From positions 608,001 through 672,000 of the forward strand of contig CBDUPA010000001.1 in NCBI GenBank assembly GCA_965368975.1: DNA of 64,000 bases, in the 5' to 3' direction. The notes below the pieces were generated by a model, which made no database searches, was not told where the DNA came from, and saw nothing but the letters and a program-made list of their open reading frames with translations. Shown one piece after another: positions 26,831 through 44,754 of this stretch; position 1 is the first letter of the stretch; each line of letters opens with the position of its first letter. Origin of the DNA: an uncultured bacterium. Lineage in GTDB: Bacteria > Acidobacteriota > Thermoanaerobaculia > Multivoradales > JAHZIX01. The translations under genes and the position numbers were made by a program.

Positions 26831-28192
26831 TCACTCCCCGTTCGACGCCATGTAGTCCAGCGTCAGGTGCGTCAAGGCACGCACCCCGAGTCCCAGGCCG
26901 CTCTCGTCGATGAAGAAATCCGGCGTGTGGTGGCCCGGGGCTTCGTCTTCGCTGAGGTCCAGGGACTTGCCGCCGAGGAAGAAGAAGAAGCCGGGCACCT
27001 GCTCGGCGAAGAAGGAAAAGTCCTCGGCACCGGTGATCGCCGGCACGATATGCAGGTTGTCCTCGCCGGCGACGCGGCGCAGCGTCGGCTCGACGGCGGC
27101 AGTCAGGTCGACGTTGTTGTAGGTCACCGGGTAGGAGGTGGTGAGCGGGATCTCGACCTTCACCTCGGCACCGAGACTCTCACCGACGCCGGAGGCGATC
27201 TGGCGTACTTTGGCGTGGATGCGCTTGCGGTCGTCGGGGCTGAGCGCGCGCAGCGTACCGACTAGCACCACTTCTTCCGGGATGATGTTGGAGCGTACGC
27301 CGCCGTGGATGCTGCCGACGGTCACCACGCTGGCGTTCTCGGTCAGGTTCATCTGCCGGCTGACGATGGTCTGCAGCGCGGTGATGATGTGCGCCGAGGC
27401 AACGATCGGGTCGGCACCCTTCCACGGCTGCGAGCCGTGTGCTTGCTTGCCCGTCACGGTGATGCGGTAGTTGTCGGCACTGGCCAGCATGCCGCCCGGG
27501 CGGTAGGAGAGCGAGCCGACGTCGAAGGTGGAGGAGATGTGCAGGCCGAAGACGACGTCAACGTCGGGATTCTGCAACGCCCCTTCCTTGACCATCAGCT
27601 CGGCGCCGCCCTCTTCGCCTTCCGGCGGCCCTTCCTCGGCCGGCTGGAACAGGAACTTGACGGTGCCCGGCAAGTCGTCGCGCAACTGGCTGAGCACTTG
27701 CGCGACCCCCATCAGGATCGCCACGTGGGTGTCGTGGCCGCAGGCGTGCATCACCGGCACTTCCGCGCCGTTGAAGACACCGGTCGCCTTGGAGGCGAAG
27801 GGCAGGTCGGCTCGTTCGGGCACCGGCAGGGCGTCCATGTCGGCGCGCAGCGCGACGACCGGGCCGCCATCCGCACCCGCCTTGCCACCGCGTAGCACAC
27901 CGACGACGCCGGTGTGGGCGACCTCGGTCTGCACGTCGATGCCGAGCGAGCGCAGGTGCTCGGCGATCAGGCCAGCGGTGCGAAACTCGCGGTTTCCCAA
28001 CTCCGGATTCTGGTGGATGTCGCGCCGCCAGGTGATGACGTCCGGCTGGACGGCGGCGCACAGCTGGTCGACGTTGTCGGCGCCGAGCTTTCCGTCGCCG
28101 GCCGCGCTCAGCGGGGCCAGGGCGAGCGGCGCGATCAGGAATGCGAGCAGCAGCAGGCTGCCGCGGGAGCACACGGTGTTGATGGTCAGCAT
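26831..28192 (-). CDS. M20D family amidohydrolase, exported
   Basis: Signal peptide; RRDIHQNPELGNRE, LRADMDALP, MHACGHD, FQPAEE, AEDFS, HH. Confidence 0.93.
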   Translation of the reverse strand: MLTINTVCSRGSLLLLAFLIAPLALAPLSAAGDGKLGADNVDQLCAAVQPDVITWRRDIHQNPELGNREFRTAGLIAEHLRSLGIDVQTEVAHTGVVGVLRGGKAGADGGPVVALRADMDALPVPERADLPFASKATGVFNGAEVPVMHACGHDTHVAILMGVAQVLSQLRDDLPGTVKFLFQPAEEGPPEGEEGGAELMVKEGALQNPDVDVVFGLHISSTFDVGSLSYRPGGMLASADNYRITVTGKQAHGSQPWKGADPIVASAHIITALQTIVSRQMNLTENASVVTVGSIHGGVRSNIIPEEVVLVGTLRALSPDDRKRIHAKVRQIASGVGESLGAEVKVEIPLTTSYPVTYNNVDLTAAVEPTLRRVAGEDNLHIVPAITGAEDFSFFAEQVPGFFFFLGGKSLDLSEDEAPGHHTPDFFIDESGLGLGVRALTHLTLDYMASNGE

Positions 28193-28309
28193 GGCGGTGA
28201 TTCTGCCACAAAGCTGGCGTCGCGGCAGGGGCAGCTACAGGACGAGTCAGGCCGAGTTGGCGAGGCGGTACAGTCCCTGGTTGTCTGCCTCCTGTGCAGC
28301 CGACAGCAG

Positions 28310-28347
28310 AAAAAAGGCGGGCCCGGACGCGTAGCGTCCGAGTCCGC
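28310..28347 (-). terminator. Rho-independent terminator of the large secreted protein gene
   Basis: Minus strand GCGGACTCGGACGC-TAC-GCGTCCGGGCCCGC followed by CTTTTTT. Confidence 0.8.
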
Positions 28348-28378
28348 GTGTAGGAGTAGACCCTTGGGAAGTTCGTGT

Positions 28379-31300
28379 CTATGGACAGGTCGCGAACGCC
28401 TGCGTGTCCTGGATCGGCTGGAAAGCGGTTGCCTGCGGATTCAGGTAGCGCACGACCTCGCCGCTCTGGGTATCCGTGACCGTGATCCGGGCCTCGACGT
28501 TGGTCAGGCCACCGGCGAAGACCCAGAAGCGGTCGCGGCCGGCGCAGGCGTCGAGCACCTTGATCACCAGCTCGACGTTGGTGTCGCGGAAGAACCAGAA
28601 GTAGCCGGTGTCGTCGGTGAGCTGGACACCCTGGCCAATGCCGCTGGTGCCGTTGGCACGGGTCCAGTCGACGCTGACCTCGAAGCGGTCGGCGTTGAGC
28701 AGGATCGAGTCGCTGCCCGGCGGTGGTGGTCCGGGATCGACCAGGTCCGAGGACACATCGAGGGCGTCGCAGGTGCTGAAGGCGCTGGTGTCCTGGAGCG
28801 GTTGGAACGGTGCTTCGAGCGGGTTCTGGTACAGCTGTACCTCGCCGGTCCAGGTGTCGGTGACGGTCATCACCACCTCGACGTTGGTCAGGCCGCCGGC
28901 GAAGACCCAGAAGCGATCACGGCTGGCGCAAGCGTCCAGGGCCTTGACCACCATCTCGACGTTGCTGTTCTGGAAGAACCAGAAGTAGCCGGTGTCGTCG
29001 GTCAGCTGCACGGCATGTCCCGTGCCGGTACGGTCGTTGGGCGTGCGCCAGTCGGTTTCGACGGCGAAGCGACCCTCGTTCAGGCACAGTACCTGCTCGG
29101 AAGGCGTGCAGGCGCGGCCGACATGGGCGTTGGTGACCGTCAGCTCCTCGATACCGCCCTTGGCGACCACCTCGAGCGAGCTCTTGCCGCTGATCCGCTC
29201 CGAGGTGCCCTCGGCGGCCAGCAGCCGGATCTCGTCGCCCACCACGGTGAGCTTGGCCGGTGTACGCAGACCGTCGGGGTCGTCGGGCACGGCTTCGAAC
29301 AGGGAGATGGTGATGTCCTGGTCGAAGTCCATGACGTAGCCCTCGGTTGCGGTGTCCAGCTTGCCGAGACGGTCCGGGAGTCCCGTCAGCAGGGCGGCCG
29401 GCCCGGCGGGTAAGACGGTCTCGGTGACCAGGAAGCCGTCCTGGAACACCTGAACGGTCTGGGTCGGCGAGGCGATGGTCGAGAAGTCGGTGGCGACCTC
29501 GATGATCGCGTCGATGTCCGGCCGCGCCAGCTCGAGGCGGCCGAGGGGCTGGTCGGCGACGCCGTCGTAAGTACCGAAGGCGGTCAGCTGCAGGGAACTC
29601 CCCTCGGGGGGCAGGTCGGTATTGCCTGGAGCTCCGACGGTGAGGTCGAGAAGGAAGGTCTGGGCCTCGCCCTGCCGGCTGTTGGTGACCAGATTGAACC
29701 CGCCACCCTCGGCCGGGATCTCGCTGACACGCAGGCTGCCATTGGCTGGTTCCAGTCGCACGGGGCCGACGGCACCGTACAACTCCTCGCCAACGATGAC
29801 TGTCGAGGGCCCGATCACCAGCTCGTCGAGGCCGTTGTTGGTCACCTCGATGCTCGACAGGCTTAGTTCCTTGACGGGAACGACCAGCGGCGGGCAGATG
29901 ACGACGCGATCGCCTGTCACGTTCCGAGGGCCACCTTGCGCAATGTCGACCTCGGTAGTCTGGGTCAAGTAGACCTCGAAGCAGTAGGTCTGCGGATGGC
30001 TGCCAAACTCACGAAGGTCGATCTCGCTGAAGCACGAGCCGGCCGGCAAGGTGGCGACGAGGCCTTCCGCCGCGTTGAAGTACTCGGTAACCTTGGTATC
30101 TCCGTTCCAGATCTCGACTCTCACGAAGGGTTCAGTGCCGGGGAAGTCGATTGTGACAGTGGCAGGGTTGCCGCCTGTGTAAGTGAGAACTGCAGGGGTG
30201 TCAGTGCCGCCGAAGTTCGCCGTCGTCACGATTTCCTCCCCGATGTCCGGGCAGGTGATCTCAGTGTTGGCGCAGACGCCGTTGGCACCATTGAGTTCGA
30301 AGACGATGCTGCTGCCGGTAGGCAGGGCGATGTACTCGTTCGAGAAGTCGATGTCCCCGATCGGTATGCAGGTCCAGCCGTAGCAGGGCACCGGTGGTGG
30401 GCAGGTGCGGTAGCGCAGACGGGCGTAGTCGAGGATGGTGTCGTCCTGGATATAGAGGTCGAGCCGGCCGTCTAGGATCAGGTCGGAGACGTCGAAGTTG
30501 AAGGTGGTGGGTGGGCCGTCGATCCGCCAAATGCCGCCCGCCTCCGGCAGGGCGCGGATCTCGCTCATGAAGGCGAAGAGCGGACTGCCGCCGCGCAGGC
30601 CGAGATGCAGGGTGTCGTTGGAGAGTAAGCTCGAGCTACCGGGCTGCAGACGGACTTCGAGCTCGGCTTCGAAGATCGACTCGGGGAGGTTCTGGAAGGT
30701 GCAGGCGACCGCGCGGTCGGTGCGGATCTCGTCGGCGGTCTTCCACAGCACGCTCGGCAGAGCCGCTTCGAGCTCTGGGCCCCGGTAGGTGAAGTCCGTG
30801 GGCAGGGCGAACTCGTCCGGCCGGCCGCAGTAGCGGGTCGTCCAGGGTACCGACCACAGCCGCAGCTCGAAGTAGTCGACGGTCGAGTCGTCCTGCACGC
30901 GCACATCGAGCACGCGCTCACTCTTCAGCACGTCGAGCACTGTCATGCCGTCACCGAACCCCAGTGTCGAGAGATCGAGCGTAAAGGTAGTGGGACCGTT
31001 GTTGGCGATGTCCCAGGTACCGCCGGACTCCGGCAGCTGGACGAAGCTCTTGCTGGCGAAGCCCTGACCGGAGGTAGCCGAACCGAGGTTGACGCCATCG
31101 TTGGAGGCCAACGAGCTGTTCAAGGGCCGGGTGCGGATGACCAGTTCCGCTCGGCAGAGGTCGGCGGGAATGTCGGTGAAGGTGTGTCCGACCCAGTGGT
31201 CCGTGGTGGTCTGGTCGAAGCTGCCCCAGAAGGTCGGGCTGCCGAAGGCGGTGTCGAGTTCCGGGCGTCGTGACGTCGCATCCGTCGGTGGTGCGAAGTC

Positions 31301-31444
31301 GTCGGCCAGGCCGGCGCGCAGGACGACAGGCTCACCGAGATTGTCGCACTCGGACGCGTGGCTGGGTACGGGTGTCAAACACAGGCAGAGCACCGCGACC
31401 AGTACGGTCAAAAGTGCCTTGCGTGGGGGCAGAGGTAGAAGCAT
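28379..31444 (-). CDS. Large secreted multi-domain protein (two N-terminal repeats, two C-terminal repeats)
   Basis: ATG 31444 behind GGAG; signal peptide; duplicated 'TF..P.....AEL...SND...QDD...DY..LR' domain; duplicated 'RFxVxxDW...LTDDTGYFWFF...FWVFAGGLTNVE...QDT.AF.TC' domain. Confidence 0.85.
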   Translation of the reverse strand: MLLPLPPRKALLTVLVAVLCLCLTPVPSHASECDNLGEPVVLRAGLADDFAPPTDATSRRPELDTAFGSPTFWGSFDQTTTDHWVGHTFTDIPADLCRAELVIRTRPLNSSLASNDGVNLGSATSGQGFASKSFVQLPESGGTWDIANNGPTTFTLDLSTLGFGDGMTVLDVLKSERVLDVRVQDDSTVDYFELRLWSVPWTTRYCGRPDEFALPTDFTYRGPELEAALPSVLWKTADEIRTDRAVACTFQNLPESIFEAELEVRLQPGSSSLLSNDTLHLGLRGGSPLFAFMSEIRALPEAGGIWRIDGPPTTFNFDVSDLILDGRLDLYIQDDTILDYARLRYRTCPPPVPCYGWTCIPIGDIDFSNEYIALPTGSSIVFELNGANGVCANTEITCPDIGEEIVTTANFGGTDTPAVLTYTGGNPATVTIDFPGTEPFVRVEIWNGDTKVTEYFNAAEGLVATLPAGSCFSEIDLREFGSHPQTYCFEVYLTQTTEVDIAQGGPRNVTGDRVVICPPLVVPVKELSLSSIEVTNNGLDELVIGPSTVIVGEELYGAVGPVRLEPANGSLRVSEIPAEGGGFNLVTNSRQGEAQTFLLDLTVGAPGNTDLPPEGSSLQLTAFGTYDGVADQPLGRLELARPDIDAIIEVATDFSTIASPTQTVQVFQDGFLVTETVLPAGPAALLTGLPDRLGKLDTATEGYVMDFDQDITISLFEAVPDDPDGLRTPAKLTVVGDEIRLLAAEGTSERISGKSSLEVVAKGGIEELTVTNAHVGRACTPSEQVLCLNEGRFAVETDWRTPNDRTGTGHAVQLTDDTGYFWFFQNSNVEMVVKALDACASRDRFWVFAGGLTNVEVVMTVTDTWTGEVQLYQNPLEAPFQPLQDTSAFSTCDALDVSSDLVDPGPPPPGSDSILLNADRFEVSVDWTRANGTSGIGQGVQLTDDTGYFWFFRDTNVELVIKVLDACAGRDRFWVFAGGLTNVEARITVTDTQSGEVVRYLNPQATAFQPIQDTQAFATCP

Positions 31445-31473
31445 GTGGATCTCCAATCGAGGGTGGAGTGAGT

Positions 31474-31514
31474 GCCGCGGCGGCTCTGGAAAGAAATCCG
31501 AGAGCTGCCGCGGC
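31474..31514 (-). other. Strong 5'-UTR hairpin
   Basis: Plus strand GCCGCGGCGGCTCT-GGA..TCC-G-AGAGCTGCCGCGGC, between the promoter motif and the RBS. Confidence 0.55.
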
Positions 31515-31527
31515 GGGTTCTACCTCT

Positions 31528-31555
31528 CTCTTTGCGGTGGGTGGATCTTTTGGAC
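31528..31555 (-). promoter_or_regulatory. Putative ECF promoter, copy 3
   Basis: GTCCAAA-AGATCCACCCAC-CGCAAAGAG; same spacing as the copies at 34644 and 39169. Confidence 0.7.
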
Positions 31556-31602
31556 GAGTTGTCTCGGAGTCTGTCTTGGCGTCTAATCTCGGTGCGTGAT
31601 CC

Positions 31603-32337
31603 TCAGAGATCGAATTCCAGGCCGACCGTCAGCCGCACCGTGGTCTGGTTGTCTCGCGGCAGCTGCAGCGCCTTCGGTCCGGCCGGTCCGTCGAAGTTCA
31701 GCGTCGTATCGCCGTGGAAGACGGTCGAGGCCCGCGCTTCGAAACGCAGCGCCAGTCGTGGTGAGATCGGATGGCGCAGGCCGGCACCGAAGGTGAGCAG
31801 CGGACTCGTCTCGGCTCCGGTCGATGCTTCGACGCCGAGGCCAGAATCTCGACCGCGCTCGTGCCACAAGCCTGCTCCCACGAAGACCGAGGGCTGCCAG
31901 CAGCAGTCGGTGCGAAAGGTCCACTCCAGGCTGGGCGTGAGGGAGATCGCCGGCCCGGCTTCCCGATCCTCCGGAGCGATGGCGAAAGGGAGGTCACAGC
32001 CGGGAGCGGGGCACGGATCACCCCAGTCGACGCGGTAAGCCTCGGGGATCCACATCAGCGGCAACGCCAGCTGCAGCCGGGTAGTACCTCGGCTACGCAG
32101 GGTGTAGCGTGGGGTCAGGCTGATCGTGAGGCGCTCAGACGAAGCAGCCTCGAGGTCGATGACGCCGGCATTGACTTCGAGGCTCCAGCGCGACGGACAG
32201 GCCTGCACGTCGATGCCGCCGCGCTTGAGGGTCTGCGCTTCAGAGCTTGCCGTGCCGAGCACGACCAGGAGCGCCGCCAGGAGCCGCCGGCATCCGAAGC
32301 GGTGCGGGGTCGCACAGAGAAAGGTGGTCTTGCGCAT
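31603..32337 (-). CDS. Outer-membrane beta-barrel protein (OmpA/OmpW-like membrane domain)
   Basis: Signal peptide; PSVFVGAG, FGAGLRHPISPRLALRFEAR, terminal LTVGLEFDL; GAGGAGG RBS just after the S8 gene stop. Confidence 0.75.
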   Translation of the reverse strand: MRKTTFLCATPHRFGCRRLLAALLVVLGTASSEAQTLKRGGIDVQACPSRWSLEVNAGVIDLEAASSERLTISLTPRYTLRSRGTTRLQLALPLMWIPEAYRVDWGDPCPAPGCDLPFAIAPEDREAGPAISLTPSLEWTFRTDCCWQPSVFVGAGLWHERGRDSGLGVEASTGAETSPLLTFGAGLRHPISPRLALRFEARASTVFHGDTTLNFDGPAGPKALQLPRDNQTTVRLTVGLEFDL

Positions 32338-32350
32338 GATCTAGACCTCC

Positions 32351-34612
32351 TCACTGTCCCAGCAGGACGGGACTCTCGGTCGGGCCGTCCTGGGTCATGA
32401 AGTGGAGCAGGACGGTGGGACGTCGACCGCCGTGTTGCGCCGCGTCCAACCACTCGTGCCGGATGCCGTGGAAGATCCGGCTGTCACCCGGCTGCAAGGG
32501 TGTCGTCAGCGGCAAGGCGATGTACCGGTCGCCAATGCGCAGCGTCGGCGACGTCAGTGGGTACTCAGGGTCCCAGCCGGGGTCGATGTTGACGTGCAGG
32601 CTCCACGTCGTCGTCCCGGTTCTAGTCGTCTCAGGACCTCCCGAGCCGTCCGTGTCGACCCACAGGCCGCCGCTCGGTGGGGGCTCCGGCGTCAGGTCGC
32701 AGCCCACGCACGGATTGCCCTGCGGCTGCGGTCCCGTCCACGGCCGGGCCCAGATACCGTAGTACTGGCGGAAGGGGCACGGACTGGCCGCCGTCTCTCC
32801 GGGTGGATGGTAGAAGTCGCCCGAGCCACAGAATTCGGGCAAGGTGCCCGCCAGCTCGACGACGCCGACGTCCATGCCGCGCGTATGGGTGTGCAAGACC
32901 GACAGCTTGGGTCGTTGGGTGTCGGGTGCCGGGCACGAAACTGAGCATTCCGTGTCCCCGTGGGTCGACGCAGGCTCGCAGCCGAGGGCCAGAGCGACCG
33001 CTGGGCAGACGCCGACACGGCGCACCGCCGGAGCCGTCGAGCCCAGGAAGACGTTGGCTCGACGCTCGACGGGGCGGCCCGCTCGTTCGACCAGCTCCAT
33101 GACCTGGTGCCGCGACAGCTCCGGCCGCGTCTGCCAGGCCGCCGCGGCGGCGCTGGCGACGACGGTGGTGGCGACCGACGAACCGGTGAGGAAGGATGCG
33201 CGCGCCCGCGGCTTCGAGGCGTTCGGCTCGGGCGGATGCTCGATCATCGCATGATCGGCATAGGCCACGCGGGCCGGCTCGGACTCGGGACGTGCATTGG
33301 CCAGGGCCAGATCGTTCCCGTGCACTCCCCCCGCTGCGTAGAGCAGGGGCTGGCGCGCCGACTGTGCGTCAAAGGAGCCCTGTGCATCGAAGGAGCCCTG
33401 GTGCTCGGTGCCGAGCAGGCGTTCACAGTCGCGGGCATCCGGCGCCGGACGTCGTTCCCAGGCTGCCGGGAGCAACGGACCGCTCTCGACTTCCGGGCCG
33501 CCGGTGCGGTTGCCGGCCGCGACGACCACCATGGCTCCCTGGCAGCTGGCGATTTCGAGCGTCCGGTAGAGCGTGCGCACCGGTAAGGGCATGTCGCGCA
33601 CGCGCCGCTCCAAGCCGCCGAAGCGCTCACCGACCCAGCCCAGGGACAGGTTGAGCACCAGATGGTCCTCGCCGCCGCGCCGCCAAGCGAGCAGTTCCCC
33701 CCAGACCGCCTGGGCCAGCTGGTCGATGGTGCCGAAGTAGCCGCCGCTGGACCAGTCGAAAGTCGTCTGCGTCGGGTCCGCCCAGTCGAAGGCAGCGATC
33801 GGCATCGCCAGCCGCGTGGTGATCCGGACCGGGCAGCTTGCTCCGGCTTCCGTTCCACCGTCGCAGATCAGCTGGCTGGCGAGCTGCTGCAGCGCGTAGC
33901 CGTGATCCGACCTGCCGCTGGCAGTCAGGTCCGAGGGCTGCGTATCGAGCAGGGCCAGGCGGACGCGCGCCGCCCCGGCTGCCTCGCTGGCTGCCTCGCT
34001 GGCTGCCTCGCTGATTGTCTCGGAACCTGTGAGCCTGTTGACCTCCGGCAGCGACGGCAACGACACCGACTGTGCCTGCTGCCGGAAGTGCGTACCGATT
34101 TCGCGCCACACCGCGGGATCGTGGCCGGCCATCGGTGCCACCGCGGCACAGCCGGATTCCACCTCGCGCAGGCGATCCGCCTGTACTTGCTCTTCGAGGA
34201 AGCGCATCAGCATCGCCCGTGCCGCTTCAGTCGAGACGGTCGGCACGTGCTCAGCGTCGGTGTCTCCCGCTTGCTTCGGGGATATTTGGTAGACGCAGTA
34301 GGGCGACAGTGCCGGTGGCAGGGAGTCGTCATCGGGTTCGAAGAGCGAGCCTCCCGTCCAGGTGAGGCCGGGAATCGCGGGCAGCGACGGGCACGTAGCC
34401 TGCTTCTTTCCCTTGACGGCCACCCAGCGCCAGGCCGGGCAGGCCGCGCGCGTGTCGATCGGCGGATCCGTCGGCAGATCCGGCGGCGGATAGTCCGGGT
34501 ACATCGGTGGCGTGGGGGCGGCGCCCGAGCATTGCGCAGAGGCCGATGGGATGCTGCCGAGAGTGGCGAGAGAGAAGAGTATCCAGGCGGTGAGCTGCTT
34601 CAAGTATCGCAT
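32351..34612 (-). CDS. Secreted S8 (subtilisin-like) serine peptidase
   Basis: Signal peptide; LALLDT (Asp), DHG (His), VLNLSLG, AAGN (oxyanion Asn), TGSSVAT (Ser); Cys-rich flanking regions. Confidence 0.8.
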   Translation of the reverse strand: MRYLKQLTAWILFSLATLGSIPSASAQCSGAAPTPPMYPDYPPPDLPTDPPIDTRAACPAWRWVAVKGKKQATCPSLPAIPGLTWTGGSLFEPDDDSLPPALSPYCVYQISPKQAGDTDAEHVPTVSTEAARAMLMRFLEEQVQADRLREVESGCAAVAPMAGHDPAVWREIGTHFRQQAQSVSLPSLPEVNRLTGSETISEAASEAASEAAGAARVRLALLDTQPSDLTASGRSDHGYALQQLASQLICDGGTEAGASCPVRITTRLAMPIAAFDWADPTQTTFDWSSGGYFGTIDQLAQAVWGELLAWRRGGEDHLVLNLSLGWVGERFGGLERRVRDMPLPVRTLYRTLEIASCQGAMVVVAAGNRTGGPEVESGPLLPAAWERRPAPDARDCERLLGTEHQGSFDAQGSFDAQSARQPLLYAAGGVHGNDLALANARPESEPARVAYADHAMIEHPPEPNASKPRARASFLTGSSVATTVVASAAAAAWQTRPELSRHQVMELVERAGRPVERRANVFLGSTAPAVRRVGVCPAVALALGCEPASTHGDTECSVSCPAPDTQRPKLSVLHTHTRGMDVGVVELAGTLPEFCGSGDFYHPPGETAASPCPFRQYYGIWARPWTGPQPQGNPCVGCDLTPEPPPSGGLWVDTDGSGGPETTRTGTTTWSLHVNIDPGWDPEYPLTSPTLRIGDRYIALPLTTPLQPGDSRIFHGIRHEWLDAAQHGGRRPTVLLHFMTQDGPTESPVLLGQ

Positions 34613-34643
34613 TGGGGAGTCCCTCCATGAGTCGTTCATCTCC

Positions 34644-34671
34644 CCCTTTGCGACGGCCCCTCATCTTTGAC
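34644..34671 (-). promoter_or_regulatory. Putative ECF promoter, copy 2
   Basis: GTCAAAG-ATGAGGGGCCGT-CGCAAAGGG, 32 bp before the S8 ATG. Confidence 0.7.
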
Positions 34672-34708
34672 GCTCTATCTGTCGCGGAGCCCCGTCCCCG
34701 GCGGGGAG

Positions 34709-37700
34709 TCAGGGTTCGAGTAGGCGAAAACTCGCCCAGTCGGCCGTCGGTTCCGCGCGTCGCCAGTCGAGCTGCGCCTGGCGCAGGCGCTCGCCCAGGT
34801 TCTTCCCATTCCCGGTATAGAAACGGTGGAACAGGGCTTCCGTGTCGCGATCGCCGACCGGTCGCAAAGAAGCGACAACAGCCGAGGAGCCGGCGACCAG
34901 GAAGGCCTGGGCCAAACCCAGACCGGCGGTTCTCGCGCCGTCTTCGCGCCCACCCGACGGGCCCAGCGCGCGCGCGCTGTCGCAGCCCGACAGCACCACC
35001 CAGGTCGGAGCCTCGGGTAGCGCCAGGACGTCACCCAGGGTCAGGCGACCGTCGTCGGCCAGCAGCAGCGCGCTGTCCCAGCCGAAGCGCCCGGCACGCA
35101 CACTGTGTCCGGCGACGTGCAGGAGGTCGATGTCTTCGAGTCGTCCCTGCAGCGCTGCCAGGGTGGCCTCGTGCTGTTGCAAGCTCTCTACCCGCGTGTA
35201 CCCATGCTCGGTGAGCAACGCAGCCGTGTGCTCGGCCTCGCGTCGCGCCGCTGGCAAGTCGCCGCGCGGATCTCCCACTACCAGGGCTCGCCGTGGTGTC
35301 CTTGGAGAAGCTGGCGCCGTCAAGTCGAGGCTGTAGACCACCGGCAGCGCGGCGAGCACGACGTCGCCGTTCCAGGGCAAGGCGTGGACGTCGACGTCCT
35401 GCAACGGACCGTGAGCCAGGATGCGCAGCCGCCGACTGGCGTCGATGGCGTCGCGGAAGGGCGCCAGCAGCTGGTCCGCGAGTCGCGGTGGATCGGCCAG
35501 GAGCTCGGCGTCCAGGTCGAAGCGGTGGCTTTCTACCGCGGGACGGCCGTCGTTGCCGAGCCGTGCCGCGAACACGACCCAGGGCTGCGCGCCGCGAGCG
35601 TCGGCAGTGTCAGGTTGGACGCCGCGCTGAGCCAGCGGATGAAACGCCAGCACCAGTTCTCCCGCGCGCAAGGGGGGAGGTGGAGCCGGTGGTTGGGTGT
35701 CGAGAACCTGGAAGCTACGGTCGAGCGCTTGCAACGCCTGCTGCTGCCGCGTCGAGTATCGCGCTTCGGCGACGTCGAGCCGGCGGCGCGACAGCGTCCA
35801 GTGCTCGGCCGCGGCGGCCTCGCTCTGCGCGCGTTGCTGCACGTATTCGGCGACGCCGAGGTCCCAGCGTGCCTGCTCTTCAGCGGTCAGTCGCGCGCGG
35901 CGATGCCCCTGGCGCACCGAGTGCAGGACGCGGGCGCGCGAGCGGCGGGCCGCGTCGAAGGCGTCGGCGACCCGGTCTTGGTCCAGCAGCAGGCTGATCT
36001 GCCGCCGCGCGCTCAGCTGGCGGGCGTTGTCGAAGGCGAAGCGTCCCTTGGCCAGCGGTACTAGCAGGCTTTGCTGATCGACCTGTCTCTCGGCCTCGGC
36101 ATAGGCGGTCAGAGCCGCGTCGACGTCACCGAGCAGTTCGTGAGCACCTGCCTGTTGCACTTTGGACCACCAGACCGCTTGCGGGTCGAAGGCTCGCGCG
36201 GCGAGTCGCTCCATGTCGGCATAGGTGTCCAGGGCTTTGAAGCCGTTGCTCTCGAGCAGAGCCAGCCGACCCTCGATATCGAGACGCCACAGGTGGTGCA
36301 GTGCATTGGCCCGCGCTTCGAAGGCCGCGGCCTGGTCCAGTGCTGCGTGGGCTTCCCAGGTCTCGCCGCGCTGCGTGTGGGCGAGGGCGAGGTTCAACCA
36401 CAGATCCAGCGGTAGCCAGCTGTCGCAGTCGCCGCCGCCCGTCGTGCTCGATTCCAAGGCTCGCCGCAGTAGCGGCAGCGGGTCGACCAGGCCTTCGCCG
36501 TCGAACAGCTGTGTCCAGGCGAAGGAGTTGAGCAGTTCCGCTTGCTGACAAGGCGGATGATCGGTATCAGGCCGCTCGGCGAAGGCGCGCACCAACTCCG
36601 CCGCTTCGTCGCGTCGCCCCAGTCGCTGCAGCACCAGCGCCTGCCGGGCCAGCACTGAGTCACGCAGGTGCTGGTTCAGATTCAAGCGGCGGCTCGTCTC
36701 GACGGCGTCCTGGAACACCTCCAGGGCGGTCCGGAAGTCTCCGAGGTCACTGTGTAGCGATCCCTCGTAGTACCCGAGGATGACAGTGGCTTCGCCCGGA
36801 ATGTGGGAAACCGGCAGCTCAGCCAGGCGCGGGCGGATCGTCTCGGCATGCTGCAATCGGCGCACGAAGTCGCGCGATTCGTTGTCGAGCCAGTTCAGGG
36901 TGGCGAAGTCCTGAGCCAGTTGGAGCAAGTTCCCCTGGGTCAGGTGGTGTTCGACGGCGGCTTCGAGCTGTTGTCGCATCTCGTCCCGGGACGGCGCCAG
37001 CTTGGCTTGCAGGCTCAGCACGAAGCCCAGCAGCTCCTCAGGCACCTCGTCGGCGTGTTCGTGCAACAGCCGCCGCGCACGCTCCGGATCTCGCCGCGAC
37101 CACCCGCGCGCCTCGTCCAGCCAGCGTGGCTGATCGGGCTCGACCAGAGCGAGCCGGAAGGTCCGTTCCCGGCCGTCCTCGATAGCGCTGACCCGTATCT
37201 CCATAGCGCCCGAAGCTACGGGGTTCGCCTCGATTGGTAGCGTGAAGCGCCACCCACCGTCGACGCTCTGCGCCACCTCGGACCTCGTGTCGAAGGCGCG
37301 ATCGTCGACCTGCACCCTGAGATCCGTCTCCGGCGCCGAGCGCGCCCAGACGGTTACGGTGGCACTGGGCTCACAGGCCGGTCCCGGTCGCACCTCCCGG
37401 CAGCCGGCGTAGCGCACCTCCAGCGGTACGCCCTCGCCTCCGCCCACCTCGTCCGCGATCCGGAAGGGTACGGTGAGCCACCGCCAGCGGGTGTCGGTGC
37501 CCTCCGTCGCAGCTTGCAGCTCGTCGAGCGTCGCGGCTGCCGGCAGCTCGGCGCCCGCCGGTCCGTAGACGAAGACGAGCCGCCAGGAACCGGGATCGAG
37601 CGCCAGATCTTCACCCACCACGCCGCGTACGCGCACGACACCGCTGGCGGTCACCTCGTCACCGGTCACCTCGTCATCGGCCGGCCAGGGCAGCAAGACA

Positions 37701-38344
37701 CCGTCGTCACTCGCCAGGTACAGGCGGTATGCCGGCTCCAGGTCGTCCTCGGGTTGCAGGGTCAGGTCGAAGGTCGTGCCGAAGGTGAACACCGGCACCT
37801 CTTCGGCGGCACCTCGGGGAGAGCGTGTCGTCGCGGGTGGGTTGCGCCACTTCGCTTCGTAGGAGGCCACTTCGACCACCTGGACGCCTCGGGAACCCTG
37901 CCAGAGAAGACGTCCGGGACCGTTCACCAGCAACCACAGGCCGAGCACCGCGACGGTGAGTCCGGCAGCTGCCGCGAGCCACCATTGTGGGGTCGTGCGA
38001 GGCCGAGCCGTCCAGGGAGAGGAGTCCGGTTCTTCCGCTGTCCGCAGGCCCTGCAGGCGTTCGAGCACGCTGCCGTGAAACTCCTCGCCCAGCGGTCGGA
38101 ACGCCTCGAAGTCCAAGCGTGTCGCATCCGACCGCTCAGCTTCGAGCCGCAACTCTTCGAGCTCGTCGGTGGACAGCTGGCCGCGTGTCAGCCGGTGTAG
38201 ACGCTGGCCGGTGTGCTGTGCGTCCTCGTGCTCGTCCCGGCGCGCCAGCTCCCCGAGCTGCTCGAGCAGGCCGTCTTCTTCGCGGGGCCCGCCGTTCATG
38301 GGGCTGCCGTTCGTGGGCCCACGATCTGTAGGTATGTCGCTCAT
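34709..38344 (-). CDS. Anti-sigma-like N-terminus + TM + TPR + CHAT (caspase-like) protease fusion
   Basis: ATG 38344 overlaps the ECF stop; helical N-domain, TM WWLAAAAGLTVAVLGLWLLV, TPR helices, CHAT motifs GDLPAARRE, LHVAGHS (His), VLSGCDS (Cys), AFLVAG, WASF. Confidence 0.88.
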   Translation of the reverse strand: MSDIPTDRGPTNGSPMNGGPREEDGLLEQLGELARRDEHEDAQHTGQRLHRLTRGQLSTDELEELRLEAERSDATRLDFEAFRPLGEEFHGSVLERLQGLRTAEEPDSSPWTARPRTTPQWWLAAAAGLTVAVLGLWLLVNGPGRLLWQGSRGVQVVEVASYEAKWRNPPATTRSPRGAAEEVPVFTFGTTFDLTLQPEDDLEPAYRLYLASDDGVLLPWPADDEVTGDEVTASGVVRVRGVVGEDLALDPGSWRLVFVYGPAGAELPAAATLDELQAATEGTDTRWRWLTVPFRIADEVGGGEGVPLEVRYAGCREVRPGPACEPSATVTVWARSAPETDLRVQVDDRAFDTRSEVAQSVDGGWRFTLPIEANPVASGAMEIRVSAIEDGRERTFRLALVEPDQPRWLDEARGWSRRDPERARRLLHEHADEVPEELLGFVLSLQAKLAPSRDEMRQQLEAAVEHHLTQGNLLQLAQDFATLNWLDNESRDFVRRLQHAETIRPRLAELPVSHIPGEATVILGYYEGSLHSDLGDFRTALEVFQDAVETSRRLNLNQHLRDSVLARQALVLQRLGRRDEAAELVRAFAERPDTDHPPCQQAELLNSFAWTQLFDGEGLVDPLPLLRRALESSTTGGGDCDSWLPLDLWLNLALAHTQRGETWEAHAALDQAAAFEARANALHHLWRLDIEGRLALLESNGFKALDTYADMERLAARAFDPQAVWWSKVQQAGAHELLGDVDAALTAYAEAERQVDQQSLLVPLAKGRFAFDNARQLSARRQISLLLDQDRVADAFDAARRSRARVLHSVRQGHRRARLTAEEQARWDLGVAEYVQQRAQSEAAAAEHWTLSRRRLDVAEARYSTRQQQALQALDRSFQVLDTQPPAPPPPLRAGELVLAFHPLAQRGVQPDTADARGAQPWVVFAARLGNDGRPAVESHRFDLDAELLADPPRLADQLLAPFRDAIDASRRLRILAHGPLQDVDVHALPWNGDVVLAALPVVYSLDLTAPASPRTPRRALVVGDPRGDLPAARREAEHTAALLTEHGYTRVESLQQHEATLAALQGRLEDIDLLHVAGHSVRAGRFGWDSALLLADDGRLTLGDVLALPEAPTWVVLSGCDSARALGPSGGREDGARTAGLGLAQAFLVAGSSAVVASLRPVGDRDTEALFHRFYTGNGKNLGERLRQAQLDWRRAEPTADWASFRLLEP

Positions 38345-39003
38345 GGCCGCACCCCCTTGCGCCGACCGGCCTTCGTCGCCGAAGACTCGTCGCGCCGCCT
38401 GCGCTTCGACACCAGCTCGCGACACTTGCGCGCCCGCTTGTAGAGCCGGCTGCGCCACTTGTAGACCGCCGCGACCGTGCGGCCCGAGGCTTCGGCAACG
38501 TGCTCCACCGGGTGCTCGCGCACGAAGAAGAGGTCGAAGAGGTGGAGATCCCCGGCGTGCAAGCCGGCCTGGACACATAGGTAGACCTTGCGCAACTCGT
38601 CCTGGGACAGCGCGTTGTCTTCCGGTGTCCGGCGGACCTCGGCCATCGGCAAGTCCTCGGGCGCGCTGGGCTGCTCCCGCCAGGGACTGCGCCGCGAGCG
38701 CAGTACTTGCGCGGTGCGGATGCGCGCCACGTAGCTGATGAAGCCTTCGAGAGACAGGCGTTCCGGGTCCCAGCGCCGCAGCGTGCGTCCATCGTGCTGG
38801 AACAGCTCGACGAACACCTCCTGCACCATGTCCTCGACCTCCTGCCGTAGATTCCGGCTCGCCGAACTCCCCGTGCGCCAGCGGCGCAACATGCTGGCGA
38901 CGCTCCACTGGATGTCGGGGGTCAGAGCCGCGACGAGCTGCCGCTGCGCGCCTGGATCCCCTTCCAGGGCGAGGTCGACCAGCTCGCGCGTGAGGTCGGG
39001 CAT
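38341..39003 (-). CDS. ECF-family RNA polymerase sigma factor
   Basis: Region 2 EVEDMVQEVFVELF...WDPER..LEGFI; region 4 VAEASGRTVAAVYKWRSRL; 220 aa from ATG 39003. Confidence 0.9.
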   Translation of the reverse strand: MPDLTRELVDLALEGDPGAQRQLVAALTPDIQWSVASMLRRWRTGSSASRNLRQEVEDMVQEVFVELFQHDGRTLRRWDPERLSLEGFISYVARIRTAQVLRSRRSPWREQPSAPEDLPMAEVRRTPEDNALSQDELRKVYLCVQAGLHAGDLHLFDLFFVREHPVEHVAEASGRTVAAVYKWRSRLYKRARKCRELVSKRRRRDESSATKAGRRKGVRP

Positions 39004-39168
39004 GGAAACGTGACTCCGGAGGCGCTGCTTGGAGATCGGATGCTCCCGGGGTGCGTTCTCCAGGAGACAGACAAGTGGTGTGTGCGGTCTTACGGCGTTA
39101 GTGTACATCATCAGTCTCGGTAGGAGTCGGCGAGTGGCGAAGCCGACCAGTGTCGGCCGTCAGAAGTT

Positions 39169-39196
39169 CTCTTTGCGGCCAGCTCGAACTTTGGAC
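39169..39196 (-). promoter_or_regulatory. Putative ECF promoter, copy 1 (autoregulatory)
   Basis: GTCCAAA-GTTCGAGCTGGC-CGCAAAGAG upstream of the ECF gene. Confidence 0.7.
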
Positions 39197-39241
39197 AGGG
39201 CACGCCCCGGCTCGACGCCTCGGAGCCTCGGAAATGGGCCG

Positions 39242-39268
39242 TGCAACCGCCCGGACGTCCTCACGTAA
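39242..39268 (+). promoter_or_regulatory. SigW/RpoE-like ECF promoter for the beta-propeller gene
   Basis: TGCAAC-16 bp-CGTAA, about 45 bp before ATG 39312. Confidence 0.45.
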
Positions 39269-39311
39269 GTGGAGAAGACATTCCATTTCTCTCTTGAAAG
39301 GACGACTATCT

Positions 39312-40988
39312 ATGCGTACCTTCTCCTCCTTCATCCTGCTTCTGCTCACCTTGCTGAGCGCCAGCTGGCTCGCTCCCGACGCCGAAGCGCGCTCGCGCAA
39401 CGCCAAGATCCTGGTCGACGGCGCCGACATCGCCGGCACCAACGGCATCGCCGTCGGCCCGGACGGCCAGCTCTACGTGACCAGCGTCAGTGGTCGCGAG
39501 ATCGTGGTGATGGATCGCCGCTCTGGACGCATCCTCGACCGCCTGGGCATGGACCTCGGTGTCGAGACGCCGGACGACGTGGCCTTCGGTCCGGATGGCT
39601 CGCTCTACTGGACGGCCCTGTTCGCCGGCCAGGTCGGCCGCCTGCAACCCGACGGCACGGCGTCGATCGTCGCCACCCTGCCGCCCGGTCCGAACCCGAT
39701 CGCCTTCAACGCTGAAGGACGCTTGTTCGTGGGTCTGGCAGCGTTCGGCGACGGACTCTACGAGATCGATCCCGAGGGCGTGCAGCCGCCGCGGCTGATC
39801 CTGGCGGCGACCGACGGGCTGAACGGTTTCGCCTTCGGTCCCGATGGCTCGCTTTACAGCCCGCAGACCAGGACTGGCTCGATTGTGAAGATCGACGTCG
39901 ATGCGCCGAGCGTGACCGTCGTCGCCACCGGCTTCACACTGCCGGTAGCGCTCGACTTCGACAGCCAGGGGCGACTCTACGTCAACGACACTGCCGTCGA
40001 CCAGATCGTACGCCTCGACCTGGCGACCGGGCAGCGCGAGGTCTTCGCCGAGCTGTCGGACGGTGTCGACAACCTGGCTTTCGACGCCGACGACAACCTC
40101 TACGTGACCAGCTTGCTACAAGGGTCGGTGCGACGTGTCAGCCAGCCGGTGGGGGCCGCCGAGGCGCACGTACGCACCTTGCGACCGGGCGGAATGACGA
40201 CGCCGGGTGGCGTCGCGGTCTTGCCGTCGGTCGTGCCCGGTGGCGAGCGCGAAGAGGTTTGGATCGCCGACTTCTTCAGCCTGCGCGCCTTCGACGACGC
40301 CTCCGGCCAGGAGCGTGTCTTCGAGCCCTCGATCCCCGGCATCTCCGCCATCACCGCGCCCTTCACTGCCGCTCCGGCACCGGGAACCAACGGCGAGCCG
40401 CGCCTGCTGCTCACGTCGTGGTTGCTCAACGCGGTGCAGCTCTATGCCGCTGAGAGCGGGCAGATCGTGCTCAATCTGAACGACTTCGCCGTGCCGCTGA
40501 ACGCGATTCAGTTCCAGGGCGACCTGGTCGTCGCCGAGCTCGGCACCGGCTCGGTCGTGCGCGCCGATGGTGCCGATCCGTCGCAACGCACGACGATCGG
40601 CGCCGGCCTCTTCGTGCCCACCGGCCTGGCCGCGTCGGACGACGACCTGTGGGCCGCCGATTGGGCCACCGGCAGCGTCTTCCAGCTGATCCAGGCAGGC
40701 CAGGTTCTCGCCGCCCCGGTCCTCGTTGCTTCCGGTCTCGCCGGCCCCGAAGGCCTGGCGCTGCTGCCTGACGGCAACCTGGTGGTGGTCGAGGCGCTGG
40801 CCGGCCGGGTCTCGCGCGTCGACGTCGCGACCGGCGCCGTGACACCGGTTGCGATCGACCTCGGCCTCGGCGCGCCGCCGCCGCCCCTGGCGCCACCGAC
40901 CTGGATCTTCAACGGCGTCGCGGTCGGCGCCCGGGGGCGGCTGTACGTCAGCGGTGACGTCGAGAACGTGGTCTACGAGCTGCGTTGA
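39312..40988 (+). CDS. Secreted tandem beta-propeller protein (SMP-30/gluconolactonase/NHL-like)
   Basis: Signal peptide; repeated NGIAVGPDGQLYV / DDVAFGPDGSLYW / EGLALLPDGNLVV blades. Confidence 0.85.
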   Translation: MRTFSSFILLLLTLLSASWLAPDAEARSRNAKILVDGADIAGTNGIAVGPDGQLYVTSVSGREIVVMDRRSGRILDRLGMDLGVETPDDVAFGPDGSLYWTALFAGQVGRLQPDGTASIVATLPPGPNPIAFNAEGRLFVGLAAFGDGLYEIDPEGVQPPRLILAATDGLNGFAFGPDGSLYSPQTRTGSIVKIDVDAPSVTVVATGFTLPVALDFDSQGRLYVNDTAVDQIVRLDLATGQREVFAELSDGVDNLAFDADDNLYVTSLLQGSVRRVSQPVGAAEAHVRTLRPGGMTTPGGVAVLPSVVPGGEREEVWIADFFSLRAFDDASGQERVFEPSIPGISAITAPFTAAPAPGTNGEPRLLLTSWLLNAVQLYAAESGQIVLNLNDFAVPLNAIQFQGDLVVAELGTGSVVRADGADPSQRTTIGAGLFVPTGLAASDDDLWAADWATGSVFQLIQAGQVLAAPVLVASGLAGPEGLALLPDGNLVVVEALAGRVSRVDVATGAVTPVAIDLGLGAPPPPLAPPTWIFNGVAVGARGRLYVSGDVENVVYELR

Positions 40989-40991
40989 TGG

Positions 40992-43900
40992 TCAAGGTCC
41001 CGCGCGCCCGGTCGAGTCCACGGTGATGTCGACATTGCCCTCCTCTTTGACCCCGATCAGGTTGTCCGCCAGATTGCGGTCGATGCGACGCAAGAAGGGG
41101 TCGATCTCGACGTAGCGCGGCAGCTCGGCGACTTCCAGCACCAGCTGGTCGTCGCCGCGCAGCCGATGGTGCTCGACGAGGATGCGTGCCTCGCCGCGAC
41201 CATGAGCGGCCGGGTGATGGCGGTAGAGCGCAAGCTGGATGTCCTCGTCGAAGTCCAGCGGTACCGAGCTTCCGTCGTCGAGCGCGTGGCGAGCCGCGTG
41301 TACATCGAGGGTGAGCCGGTAGCTGCCGTCCGGCAAAGCCTCGGCGCGCGCTTCTCCCAGGCGCAGGTCGTAGAAGACGATGCGGGTGAACCAGTCCTCG
41401 AGCAGCGCCCGCTGCCGCGCCGAGGCATCGCGTTGCAGCTCGTCGATCAGGTGGCGCGAGGTCAGCCGTCGATCCCCGGCGCGTGCCCGGGCGACCAGGC
41501 GCCGCAGCGCCGCCTCGACCGCCGGCCGGCCGAGCAGGTCATCGGCCGCCATCATCACCAGGGCCCCCTTCGAGTAGTAGAGGTAGGGCTGGTTCAGCAC
41601 CTCGAAGAGCGGCACGTCGCCGCGCGAGCGGCTGCCGAGGTAGAAGTTGCGCTCGTTCCTGAGCGCAGCGGTGACGGCGTCGATTCCCTGGCGCTTGTCG
41701 AGGGTGATCAGTTCGCTGTAGCGAGCTGTCGACTCGACCAGGACGCTGGCACCCGGGGCTTCGGCGGGGGTCACCTGGTGCCCCCACCACTGGTGGGCGA
41801 CCTCGTGCGAGATGCGCTTGGTGAGCAGGTCGAGGGGGGCGTCGGCGTCGAGGTCGGTGAGGAAGCCGCGGTCCTCGACCATGAAGATGGTGCCGGGTGT
41901 CGCCAGGCCGGCGCCGCGTTTGAGCAGGCTGGGGGTTTCGATCAAGCGCAGGTGATCGAGTGGGTAGGGCCCGAAGCGGCGCGACAGGTCTTCGAGCGCG
42001 TCGGTCGCGGCGTCCAGCATGTAGCGAGCGTTGCGTGCGTGTGGTGGGTGGTAGTAGACCTCGACCTCGATGTCGCTCTCGGAGCCGTCGGGCTGGGCTG
42101 TGCGCCGCTCGACGGCGTAGCGGCCCGAGGCGTAGGCGAGGAAGGGCACCACGGGTCGTTCGAGGACGAAGCGGGCCCAGCGCCGCACGGCACCGCCTTC
42201 GGCGTGTTCCCCCGTCGCGACGCGGCGACCGGGGCCGAGCGGGATCTGGTCGCCGTCGGTCGAGAGGGTGACGTCGAGCGTCAAGGTTTGGGTGCTATCT
42301 CCCAGCTGGCCGCTGACCATCGCTCCTTCGAGGGTGAGCGCCCGTTGCGACGGTGGCAGGCCCTGCCGGCGACGCTGCACCGGGTCGCGCAGTTCGCGGC
42401 CCGCTTGGTAGCCGAGGCTGACACCGTGTGCGTTCTGGAAGAGAAAAGAACCGTTGGCCAGGATGTCTCGGTCGACGCCGCCCGCCTGCACGCCGCCGCG
42501 CCGTATCTCCAGGTCGACTCGCAGCTCGGCCTCCTCGCCGGGCGGCAGCGGCTGTGCCAGGTCGAAGCGGTGGACGCCGAAGCGCGCGTCCGACGTGCTG
42601 GCTAGTTGCTCACCGTCCAGTGGCCCGCCGTCCGGCTGCTCGTTGAGAGAGGGGCCGGCGAGAACCAGCCGCTCGATGCGAGCGTCGCGCGGCACGGTGA
42701 CCCAGACGGTGTCGATCGGCAGGTCGGTGTCATTGCGCAGCTGGTACTGACTCGCGGTGCTGAAGCGGCGCTGACGTGGGTACAGGTCGATGGTCGCGCT
42801 CAGGTGGACCAGGCTCGGCTGCGGTAGTGCTTCCAGGTGCTGGTAGCGGCGCTCGTAGTCGGCGCGCCAGGTGTGCACGTCGTCCGCCGTTTCGTAGCCG
42901 TGGACGGCGTGGACCTGGTGCCAGATGGCACCGCCGATCAGCAGCCAGGCAGCTGTCAGCGCCAGCGACCAGTAGCGCACAGGCCGGCCGGCAGGCCCGC
43001 GCCAGAGAGCTGGCAACGCGGTCAGGCGAAAGCGCAGGCGAGCGTCGGTGCCGCGCCGCCACAGGCCGGTAGTCACGATGCCGAGCAGGATGGCGAACAG
43101 GCTCCAGTAGGCGGTCAGCCAATGAAAGCTCTCTGTCTCGGGGCCGAAGCCAGCCATCGCCGAGTACGGGACTTCCGGCATGGAGGCGAGCTGCAGCAGC
43201 GGGTGGTTGAGATGGCCGAGGGCGCCGCCGTACCAGACGACGACGGCGGCAGCGGTGAGCAGTAGACCGAGGTAGCGGTTGGCGCTCAGCGTCTGCAGCG
43301 CTACGGCCACCACGCCGACGATCGCCAGCGGCAGCACGGAGAAGTAGAGCTGCGAGGCGTAGACGCCGAGATCGAGGTCGAAGTACCCGGCGCTGAGCTG
43401 AAACGTCACGGCGACCGTCGTTGACACCGCGGTCAGCAGCAGGAGCAGGCAGCTCAGCACGGTGAGCTTCGAAGTCAGGAAGAGAGCGTTGCTCGCCGGT
43501 GTGGCGTCGACGATCGGTGCCATGCCGACGCTACGTTCGCGCCACACCAGCTCGGCACTGAAGAACACCAGCAGCACCAGGCCGATCAACGTCGAGGCTT
43601 CTTGCAAGCGCGCGACCAGCAGGGCGGTGCTGGGGAGTAGGGTAGAGCCGTACTCGGCATGCTGTACGTACTGCTGTATCTCCAGCAGACTGAGGCCCGC
43701 CCACAGCACCAGCAGTGCCAGCAGCGGCCAGCTACGCAGCGTCTGTTGCAGGTCGAGACGCACGGTAGATAGCCAGGCAGCCAGCGAACTAGGCAGCCAA
43801 GCTCGTGCCTGTTCGGGGGCGGGCGGAGGGAGTGTGGGCGTCAGAGATGAGGTTCGGTGTGGGATCGAGGGTGCGGTATCGAGTGTGGCCCGCCGACGCG

Positions 43901-44753: not shown

Positions 44754-44754
44754 C

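Follow-up and report, generated by a model that had tools for sequence, protein, structure and literature searches.

What reads a two-part DNA motif that stands before a sigma factor gene and recurs before two genes downstream of it, and does it join the genes behind it into one circuit? We asked this of a 64-kb window in the genome of an uncultured acidobacterium (assembly GCA_965368975.1, contig CBDUPA010000001.1, positions 608,001 to 672,000). "The window" means this whole stretch of 64,000 nucleotides (nt), and coordinates count from its first letter. Its minus strand carries genes for a sigma factor of the extracytoplasmic function (ECF) type, a TPR-CHAT membrane protein, an S8 subtilase-like peptidase, a putative outer membrane beta-barrel protein, and a large secreted protein (Table 1). 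A first-pass annotation had proposed that three identically spaced motif copies, with the consensus GTCMAAR-N12-CGCAAAGRG, are promoters used by the ECF sigma factor and tie the five genes into one circuit. We put a probability of about 0.78 on the reading that these copies are -35 (GTCMAA) and -10 (GCAAAG) boxes recognized by the sigma factor encoded at 38341-39003, and that the five genes form one small, private regulon. The promoter interpretation is supported by sequence comparison, because relatives of the cassette carry a related motif in the same gaps, the closest relative has the window's variant, and the motif is private to the cluster.

The positions, strand, and sequences of the three 28-nt copies were as the first-pass annotation had given them, and its description of them as intergenic, oriented toward genes, and variable in the spacer also held. 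They were the only exact matches in the window, whereas 100 shuffles that preserved dinucleotide counts averaged 0.00. With up to two mismatches, the same three sites were found and no others (shuffle mean, 0.19). All three lie between genes within one 7.7-kb stretch and point toward the downstream gene. Their distances to the start codon are about 166 nt for the sigma factor (ATG at 39003), 32 nt for the S8 peptidase (ATG at 34612), and 84 nt for the 1021-residue secreted protein (ATG at 31444). When the three regions were aligned, similarity was confined to the two blocks, and the spacers and flanks were unlike. The spacing in GTC-N16-CGC is the one found in classic ECF promoters (AAC-N16-CGT).

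We extended the search to the whole genome (7,125,974 bases in 59 contigs, 65% G+C). The exact pattern was present at the three window sites only, and the pattern read backwards was not present at all. Both half-sites are common genome-wide (GTCMAAR, 1608; CGCAAAGRG, 66). When they were paired at spacers from 8 to 17, pairs were found at spacer 12 alone and at the three sites alone. The first-pass annotation had raised the possibility that the motif is frequent at random positions. It is not: the count stayed at three when one mismatch was allowed, and the 12 extra sites that came with two mismatches were at background (14 in the reversed control). The motif is private to this cluster within the genome.

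Table 1. Motif copies, genes, and protein domains of the cluster, by position in the window
Feature	Positions	Strand	Basis or remark
Motif copy 1, GTCCAAA-N12-CGCAAAGAG	39169..39196	-	Predicted promoter of the sigma/anti-sigma operon; predicted transcription start near 39163-39167
Motif copy 2, GTCAAAG-N12-CGCAAAGGG	34644..34671	-	Predicted promoter of the S8/outer membrane protein operon; 38 nt past the CHAT stop codon
Motif copy 3, GTCCAAA-N12-CGCAAAGAG	31528..31555	-	Predicted promoter of the gene for the 1021-residue secreted protein
ECF-type sigma factor, 220 residues	38341..39003	-	TIGR02937 (sigma70-ECF); alignment of 17 homologues
TPR-CHAT membrane protein, 1211 residues	34709..38344	-	N-terminal domain, one predicted membrane helix, TPR repeats, CHAT
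Predicted anti-sigma domain of the CHAT protein (cytoplasmic, helical)	38033..38278	-	Complex model and fold model
Predicted transmembrane helix of the CHAT protein	37922..37984	-	Model helix 122-142; hydrophobic stretch WWLAAAAGLTVAVLGLWLLV
CHAT (caspase-like) protease domain	34724..35485	-	Pfam PF12770, residues 955-1208; catalytic His (HVAGHS) and Cys (LSGCDS)
S8 subtilase-like peptidase with signal peptide	32351..34612	-	Pfam Peptidase_S8, 24.8 bits (cut-off, 21.8)
Putative outer membrane beta-barrel protein, 244 residues	31603..32337	-	PF13505 (0.0022) and TIGR04565 (0.0011), both below cut-offs
1021-residue protein with signal peptide and two C-terminal repeats	28379..31444	-	No known family

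A profile built from 17 homologues of the sigma factor was used to search 300 genomes of the order (Acidobacteriota, Thermoanaerobaculia). It found the family in 88 of them, in 25 of 89 genera. Phylum-wide, with eight candidates scored per genome, the family was found in 3 of 401 genomes, including the window's own and one from the same order. (A search with a three-row sigma alignment returned only the two relatives already known.) We compared 37 related loci (L023-L039 and L075-L094), of which 34 are long enough to take in the end of the CHAT gene and S8, whereas 3 are truncated by a contig edge. The order sigma, CHAT, S8 on one strand was kept in all 34.

The window's exact pattern, with up to four mismatches, gave nothing meaningful in the first 16 related loci. 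A relation to the relatives' motif emerged only when homologous gaps were compared. The two closest genomes (sigma identity, 47-49%) have GTCAGA-N13-TGCAAAGAG / TGCAAAGA both upstream of the sigma gene and before the S8 gene. The upstream copies lie at -197 and -196 from the sigma start, compared with -193 in the window. Nearly all other loci have tGTCAGAAA-N13-GCGAAg just past the CHAT stop codon. The window's own variant, GTCCAr...GCAAAGrG, is present in two gaps of a metagenomic relative, L096 (sigma identity, 61%; two contigs with identical matches). There, GTCCAAC...GCAAAGAGAGG / GGCAAAGAGAGG comes directly after the sigma gene and GTCCAGG...GCAAAGGGGAGG / CGCAAAGGGGAGG stands before the S8 gene. 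On the sigma tree, the -10 variants follow the sigma clades.

To count such sites, we made a weight matrix from the S8-upstream sites of 13 relatives, with the window excluded, and scanned the 37 loci at a threshold of 13 bits. There were 81 distinct sites in the sense orientation versus 10 antisense, and the 24 loci outside the matrix set gave 51 versus 8. A site was found in the CHAT-S8 gap of 28 of 34 loci (15 of 21 independent ones). At the sigma end of the cassette, 19 of 37 loci had a site just past the sigma stop codon, before the anti-sigma gene, and 7 of 37 had one within 450 nt upstream of the sigma gene; 25 of 37 had either. The scan of the genome and of orthologous sigma loci, which the first-pass annotation had suggested as a check, bore out its motif: within the genome it is confined to this cluster, and a related bipartite, strand-specific motif occupies the homologous gaps. 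The companion claim of sigma autoregulation would apply more narrowly. A copy does stand upstream of the sigma gene in the window and in the two closest genomes, but this is not a family rule (7 of 37, compared with 19 of 37 past the sigma stop codon).

The logo of 55 strong sites reads yTGTCAGAAA, an unconserved 13-nt spacer, and GCGAA. Outside the matrix, at +30 from the G of GTC (four bases past GCGAA), 44 of the 55 sites have a C, possibly a discriminator or start-site feature. The window's three sites do not have this C; common to them and L096 instead is GCAAAGrGrG. We also considered GAAAC within GTCAGAAAC as the -35 box and rejected it, since 13 nt would then separate it from GCGAA, which is too few, and just 26 of 55 sites have a C at position 9.

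In relatives, genes of various kinds downstream of S8 likewise stand behind motif copies. Among 12 such genes scanned, 5 encode subtilases and 7 encode proteins without a Pfam family. Some relatives carry at least three strong copies after S8, and the predicted regulon would therefore be variable, and larger in those genomes. Sites in loci of this kind include 8053-8590 in L089, 7251 and 10142 in L093, and 7767 and 8388 in L094. The genes behind the copies in such relatives are open reading frames of 91 to 97 residues, further subtilases, and genes for large proteins without a family.

The proteins of the cluster were assigned as follows. The sigma factor matches TIGR02937 at 45.6 bits (cut-off, 42.9), over residues 55-229 of a 256-residue form and profile positions 2-163 of 165, whereas Pfam Sigma70_r2 alone is below its cut-off (20.7 versus 24). 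The 256-residue form would start at an alternative in-frame ATG at 39111; the homologues align from the start at 39003. The ATG of the 1211-residue protein overlaps the sigma stop codon (ATGA). This protein matches Pfam CHAT at 1.8e-30 and TPR profiles weakly, and its CHAT His/Cys dyad is invariant in an alignment of 36 family members. We set the S8 start at the ATG of MRYLKQL because the ATG at 34639 is only 5 nt past the motif. As aligned, 34 of 35 family members retain the Asp, His, Asn, and Ser columns of the S8 peptidase (the 35th, L086, has its Asp one column off). Judged by their intact catalytic residues, both proteases appear to be active. The beta-barrel gene starts 14 nt past the S8 stop codon and is likely cotranscribed with S8; a homologue follows S8 in L024 and L028. 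An RseP-like M50 gene is present in the genome (227.7 bits).

If the sigma factor reads these promoters, what might hold it in check? The candidate is the N-terminal domain of the 1211-residue protein. Its fold model has helices at 22-54, 60-72, 74-82, and 88-104, with a mean predicted local distance difference test score (pLDDT) of 76. The first 150 residues of the window protein lack cysteine, and in the family alignment no Cys or His column is conserved. The domain has no match to zf-HC2 or any other Pfam family at E values up to 1. A complex model of the sigma factor with residues 2-112 of the CHAT protein scored 0.82, compared with 0.01 for the best of three controls. The contacts involve sigma residues 15-71 and 132-195, which are in both of its domains. 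Separate runs agreed in at least 93% of contacts, and the partner pLDDT was at least 76. Of 157 solved complexes, 116 attained the mark used for this score, as did 2 of 215 mismatched pairs; these counts are only rough when own alignments are used. The model supports the idea that the N-terminal domain binds the sigma factor, as an anti-sigma.

The predicted anti-sigma domain and membrane helix form a gene of their own, of 249-309 codons and placed ahead of TPR-CHAT, in at least 17 related loci, which makes a fused/split pair with the window form. The TPR-CHAT protein of a split locus is exported and has 850-1000 residues. The fused anti-sigma/TPR-CHAT form occurs in the window, L023, L024, L036, and perhaps L032. 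Some split loci have two open reading frames in one frame parted by a stop codon, and single tblastn matches span that codon in L027, L075, and L078.

These parts suggest the following mechanism. At rest, the helical N-terminal domain of the 1211-residue protein would keep the sigma factor at the membrane, bound as in the complex model. A periplasmic signal may act via the TPR-CHAT part, in which the His-Cys dyad is intact. The anti-sigma would then be cleaved, an RseP-type intramembrane cleavage would follow, and the sigma factor would be released. (This is the sequence of events proposed, not proven, for DdvA of Myxococcus xanthus.) RNA polymerase with this sigma factor would start transcription a few nucleotides after GCAAAG. 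Free sigma factor would raise expression of its own operon, and so exert both positive and negative feedback in this genome. The outputs would be the secreted subtilase with the barrel protein and the large secreted protein, with the subtilase as the probable conserved output. The predicted promoter before the sigma gene in this genome and the two closest genomes would place both sigma and anti-sigma under feedback, whereas in most relatives it would stand before the anti-sigma gene only.

Several observations weigh against this picture. The idea that all five genes form one circuit is supported by comparison for the sigma, CHAT, and S8 set, which is conserved with the motif in its gaps. However, the 1021-residue protein has no homologue in the 37 related loci, and it is linked to the others solely by this genome's motif copy. 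Scored with the relatives' matrix, two window sites reach 16.3 and 14.9 bits and the S8 site falls below 13, and none is singled out in the genome: at a gap of 11, there were 31 genome matches of at least 15 bits versus 17 in the reversed control. Because that matrix fails to single out the window sites, their link to the family motif comes from homologous position and intermediates, not from a blind scan. Each of the three window spacers falls 1 nt short of those of every relative, the one with 61% sigma identity included (counted from the G of GTC, GCAAA is at 21-25 in the window and the matching block at 22-26 in that relative), and such a concerted change in three promoters is unexplained. 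In 6 of 34 loci, nothing that scored 13 bits or more stood before S8; one of these loci is a paralogous cassette in the window's own genome. The -10 variants that track sigma clades are no proof of coevolution, because kin share motifs by descent. A Foldseek search with the N-terminal domain gave no match at an E value of 0.001 or below (best, 1.9); rows for the cytoplasmic part of MucA, at 4.6-7.4, are not evidence. Finally, the complex model may have passed by likeness, because solved structures are rich in sigma/anti-sigma complexes.

Might the motif belong to something other than this sigma factor? Another ECF sigma factor, or a regulator that binds two half-sites, could read it and merely co-occur with the cassette. 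The tie between motif and sigma factor was drawn by comparison, 28 sigma-like candidates were scored in the genome at first look, and the family-type motif has strong-looking matches elsewhere in the genome. Those matches, however, do not exceed the reversed control. The window variant is confined to its own cluster, and the motif accompanies the cassette across 25 genera and shifts with the sigma clade. Also, its blocks are neither palindromic nor direct repeats, and they are strand specific (81 versus 10), as one would expect from -35 and -10 boxes more than from the site of a dimeric regulator. We consider another factor unlikely.

We give still less weight to action in RNA, in which the motif would be a shared 5'-leader element (where a protein or small RNA binds or the RNA is processed) and the true promoters would lie further upstream. 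There is room for a long leader in the case of the sigma gene, given the roughly 166 nt between that copy and the start codon. The S8 copy leaves little room for an upstream promoter, because 38 nt separate it from the CHAT stop codon and 32 nt from the start of S8. A search of 28000-39600 (11.6 kb) for sigma-70-type promoter-like sites found 0 with 0.5 expected, and two fixed blocks with a free spacer of 12-13 nt are a hallmark of sigma recognition. The leader beyond the motif is unconserved among the three closest loci, and a leader element between copy 1 and the sigma start, which we had considered, was dropped on that ground. A last alternative, chance resemblance or the remnants of a short repeated or mobile element, is effectively refuted. 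The half-sites are individually common (1608 and 66), but shuffles expect 0.00 copies in the window, the backwards control found 0 in the genome, the spacers and flanks are unrelated, and the motif is conserved at homologous positions in other genomes. Recognition by the cassette's own sigma factor is the reading that we prefer.

The best family-type matches elsewhere in the genome (22-23 bits), all before genes, are at C3:36589 (+), C10:131135 (+), C14:60003 (-), and C8:154932 (+). We did not count such matches as regulon members. With a gap of 12, there were 3 at 20 bits or more versus 3 in the reversed control, and 3 versus 1 at 22 bits or more. They may be chance, because the set is not above that control. 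Behind one of them is a gene for a 773-residue protein, the N-terminus of which we take to be like a contractile tail sheath. A gene for a 527-residue signal-peptide protein has upstream of it, at C10:129402-129447 (+), three CCGTCAGAAA-type half-sites that overlap and are spaced at 18 nt.

The same genome has a second, paralogous sigma/anti-sigma/TPR-CHAT/S8 cassette (contig C7, about 148774-155400; L038), with a sigma factor 38% identical to that of the window. A canonical-looking ECF sigma gene comes directly after its S8 gene. No motif site in this cassette reaches 13 bits, and about 25 nt separate the CHAT stop codon from the start of S8; the cassette lends support neither way.

How does the cassette compare with described ECF groups? 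The first-pass annotation had set the motif apart from the classic AAC/CGT type. This is literally true, but the type is not unprecedented, because the catalogued ECF groups already include some with TGTCA-type -35 boxes and one with GCGAAT as the -10 box. In the group descriptions of the ECF classification (PMC7826278), TGTCA-type -35 boxes are given for ECF37, 41, 103, 131, 250, and 288 (ECF131 has TGTCA / CGCAC), and the ECF22 promoter is given as TGTGATTTT / GCGAAT(C/A)AT. The ECF22 boxes are both close to the TGTCAGAAA / GCGAAg of the window's family. The partners of those groups differ, being, for example, four-helix DUF2207 anti-sigmas for ECF22 and SnoaL extensions for ECF41, and none of the groups is described in those entries with CHAT or subtilase neighbours (PMC7826278). 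In the text of the classification supplement through ECF294, CHAT appears under ECF54 alone, and no Acidobacteria-containing group is described with CHAT (PMC7826278).

ECF54 is described, in the relevant sections of two articles, as a sigma factor conserved beside a subtilase and a TPR-CHAT protein, with protease regulation proposed and never tested (PMC7826278, PMC8999054). Its entry places it 100% in Actinobacteria and assigns +1 to a carboxypeptidase-regulatory-like protein, +2 or -1 to the subtilase, and +3 or -2 to CHAT. The entry gives no anti-sigma and a predicted promoter of GTATCAG / CTCC (PMC7826278). Like ECF54 as described there, the window's family has subtilase and TPR-CHAT genes beside the sigma gene (34 of 34 loci). 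Measured against that description, it is set apart from ECF54 by its place in Acidobacteriota, by the order sigma, (anti-sigma), CHAT, S8, by a +1 gene for a predicted sigma-binding membrane protein, and by the motif TGTCAGAAA-N13-GCGAA. A full-text literature search for ECF, CHAT domain, and sigma factor returned nothing on this family, although supplementary tables may list members.

The other point of comparison is the DdvS/DdvA pair of M. xanthus. As the passages on this pair describe it, the ECF sigma gene is followed by a gene for a single-pass membrane anti-sigma with a periplasmic TPR-CHAT part and a His-Cys dyad (PMC6061681, PMC11506125). DdvS has a handful of dependent promoters around the locus, one of them for the sigma/anti-sigma operon, and the proposed model is CHAT-mediated cleavage of DdvA followed by RseP (PMC6061681, PMC11506125). 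According to the main text of PMC11506125 (its table S7 aside), DdvA is the only characterized TPR-CHAT anti-sigma, and DdvA-like proteins are found only in Myxococcota and one Comamonas.

Like DdvA, the window protein is predicted to be single pass, with an N-terminal domain, one helix, and then a TPR-CHAT part with the dyad. The differences from DdvS and DdvA as those passages present them are several. DdvA binds its sigma factor by a zinc (CHCC) three-helix bundle, whereas the window domain has no cysteine and no Pfam family. DdvS promoters are GTAA-N16-CGT, compared with GTCMAA/GCAAAG in the window. The DdvS regulon includes genes of a cyclic oligonucleotide-based antiphage signaling system (CBASS) and of CRISPR-Cas type III-B, whereas the predicted regulon in the window consists of sigma/CHAT, S8/barrel, and the secreted protein. 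Also, unlike in DdvA, anti-sigma and TPR-CHAT are separate genes in most relatives of the window cassette. Solved chains, DdvA included, gave no sequence match to the sigma factor or the CHAT protein at E values up to 0.01, and the CHAT half gave nothing relevant against them at E values up to 10.

These comparisons allow a wider interpretation, which we offer only tentatively and doubt more than we believe. The cassette may be an uncharacterized protease-gated envelope module, with a zinc-free membrane anti-sigma fused to or beside a periplasmic TPR-CHAT sensor, a universal subtilase target, and a private TGTCAGAAA-N13-GCGAA code. Together with ECF54 and DdvA, it might then belong to a phylum-spanning class of CHAT/subtilase-gated sigma switches. 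If this is true, the two unrelated proteases would make a sensor-and-output (or feedback) cascade, and the fused/split pairs would show directly which parts cooperate.

We also recorded some features of the remaining genes. The 1021-residue protein has no Pfam or NCBIfam match and no usable Protein Atlas match. Its C-terminus (28379-29100, minus strand) consists of two tandem repeats of about 115 residues, CLN.GRF.V...TDDTGYFWFF...RFWVFAGGLTNVE...FQP.QDT.AF.TC, with conserved cysteines in each; the repeats have no Pfam, NCBIfam, or Atlas match. The genome has 23 CHAT-profile matches, mostly in open frames of about 1000-1400 residues, an unusually large repertoire, and only two of these adjoin this sigma family. 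Elsewhere in the window, a minus-strand gene at 40992-44861 encodes a 1289-residue protein that combines an ATP-binding cassette (ABC) type 2 membrane region (weak match) with a peptidase M1 domain. It is preceded by an ABC ATPase gene at 44755-45648 that overlaps its start.

ECF sigma factors serve as orthogonal switches, and for most of them the signal has yet to be learned. The cassette in the window is a compact, testable case, and its predicted promoter is high in information and has just three copies in 7.1 Mb. In addition, it offers a predicted anti-sigma domain outside the known families and, for anti-sigma and TPR-CHAT, both fused and split forms in nature. If our reading is wrong, we are left with a conserved gene cluster of the ordinary kind and a motif that still needs explaining. 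In the parts of the DdvA and ECF54 articles that treat the matter, the DdvA cleavage step is still a proposal and the protease idea for ECF54 was never tested. Given a second, unrelated family that shares the predicted architecture and has a conserved subtilase target, one could ask whether a caspase-like domain gates sigma release, and what the subtilase does.

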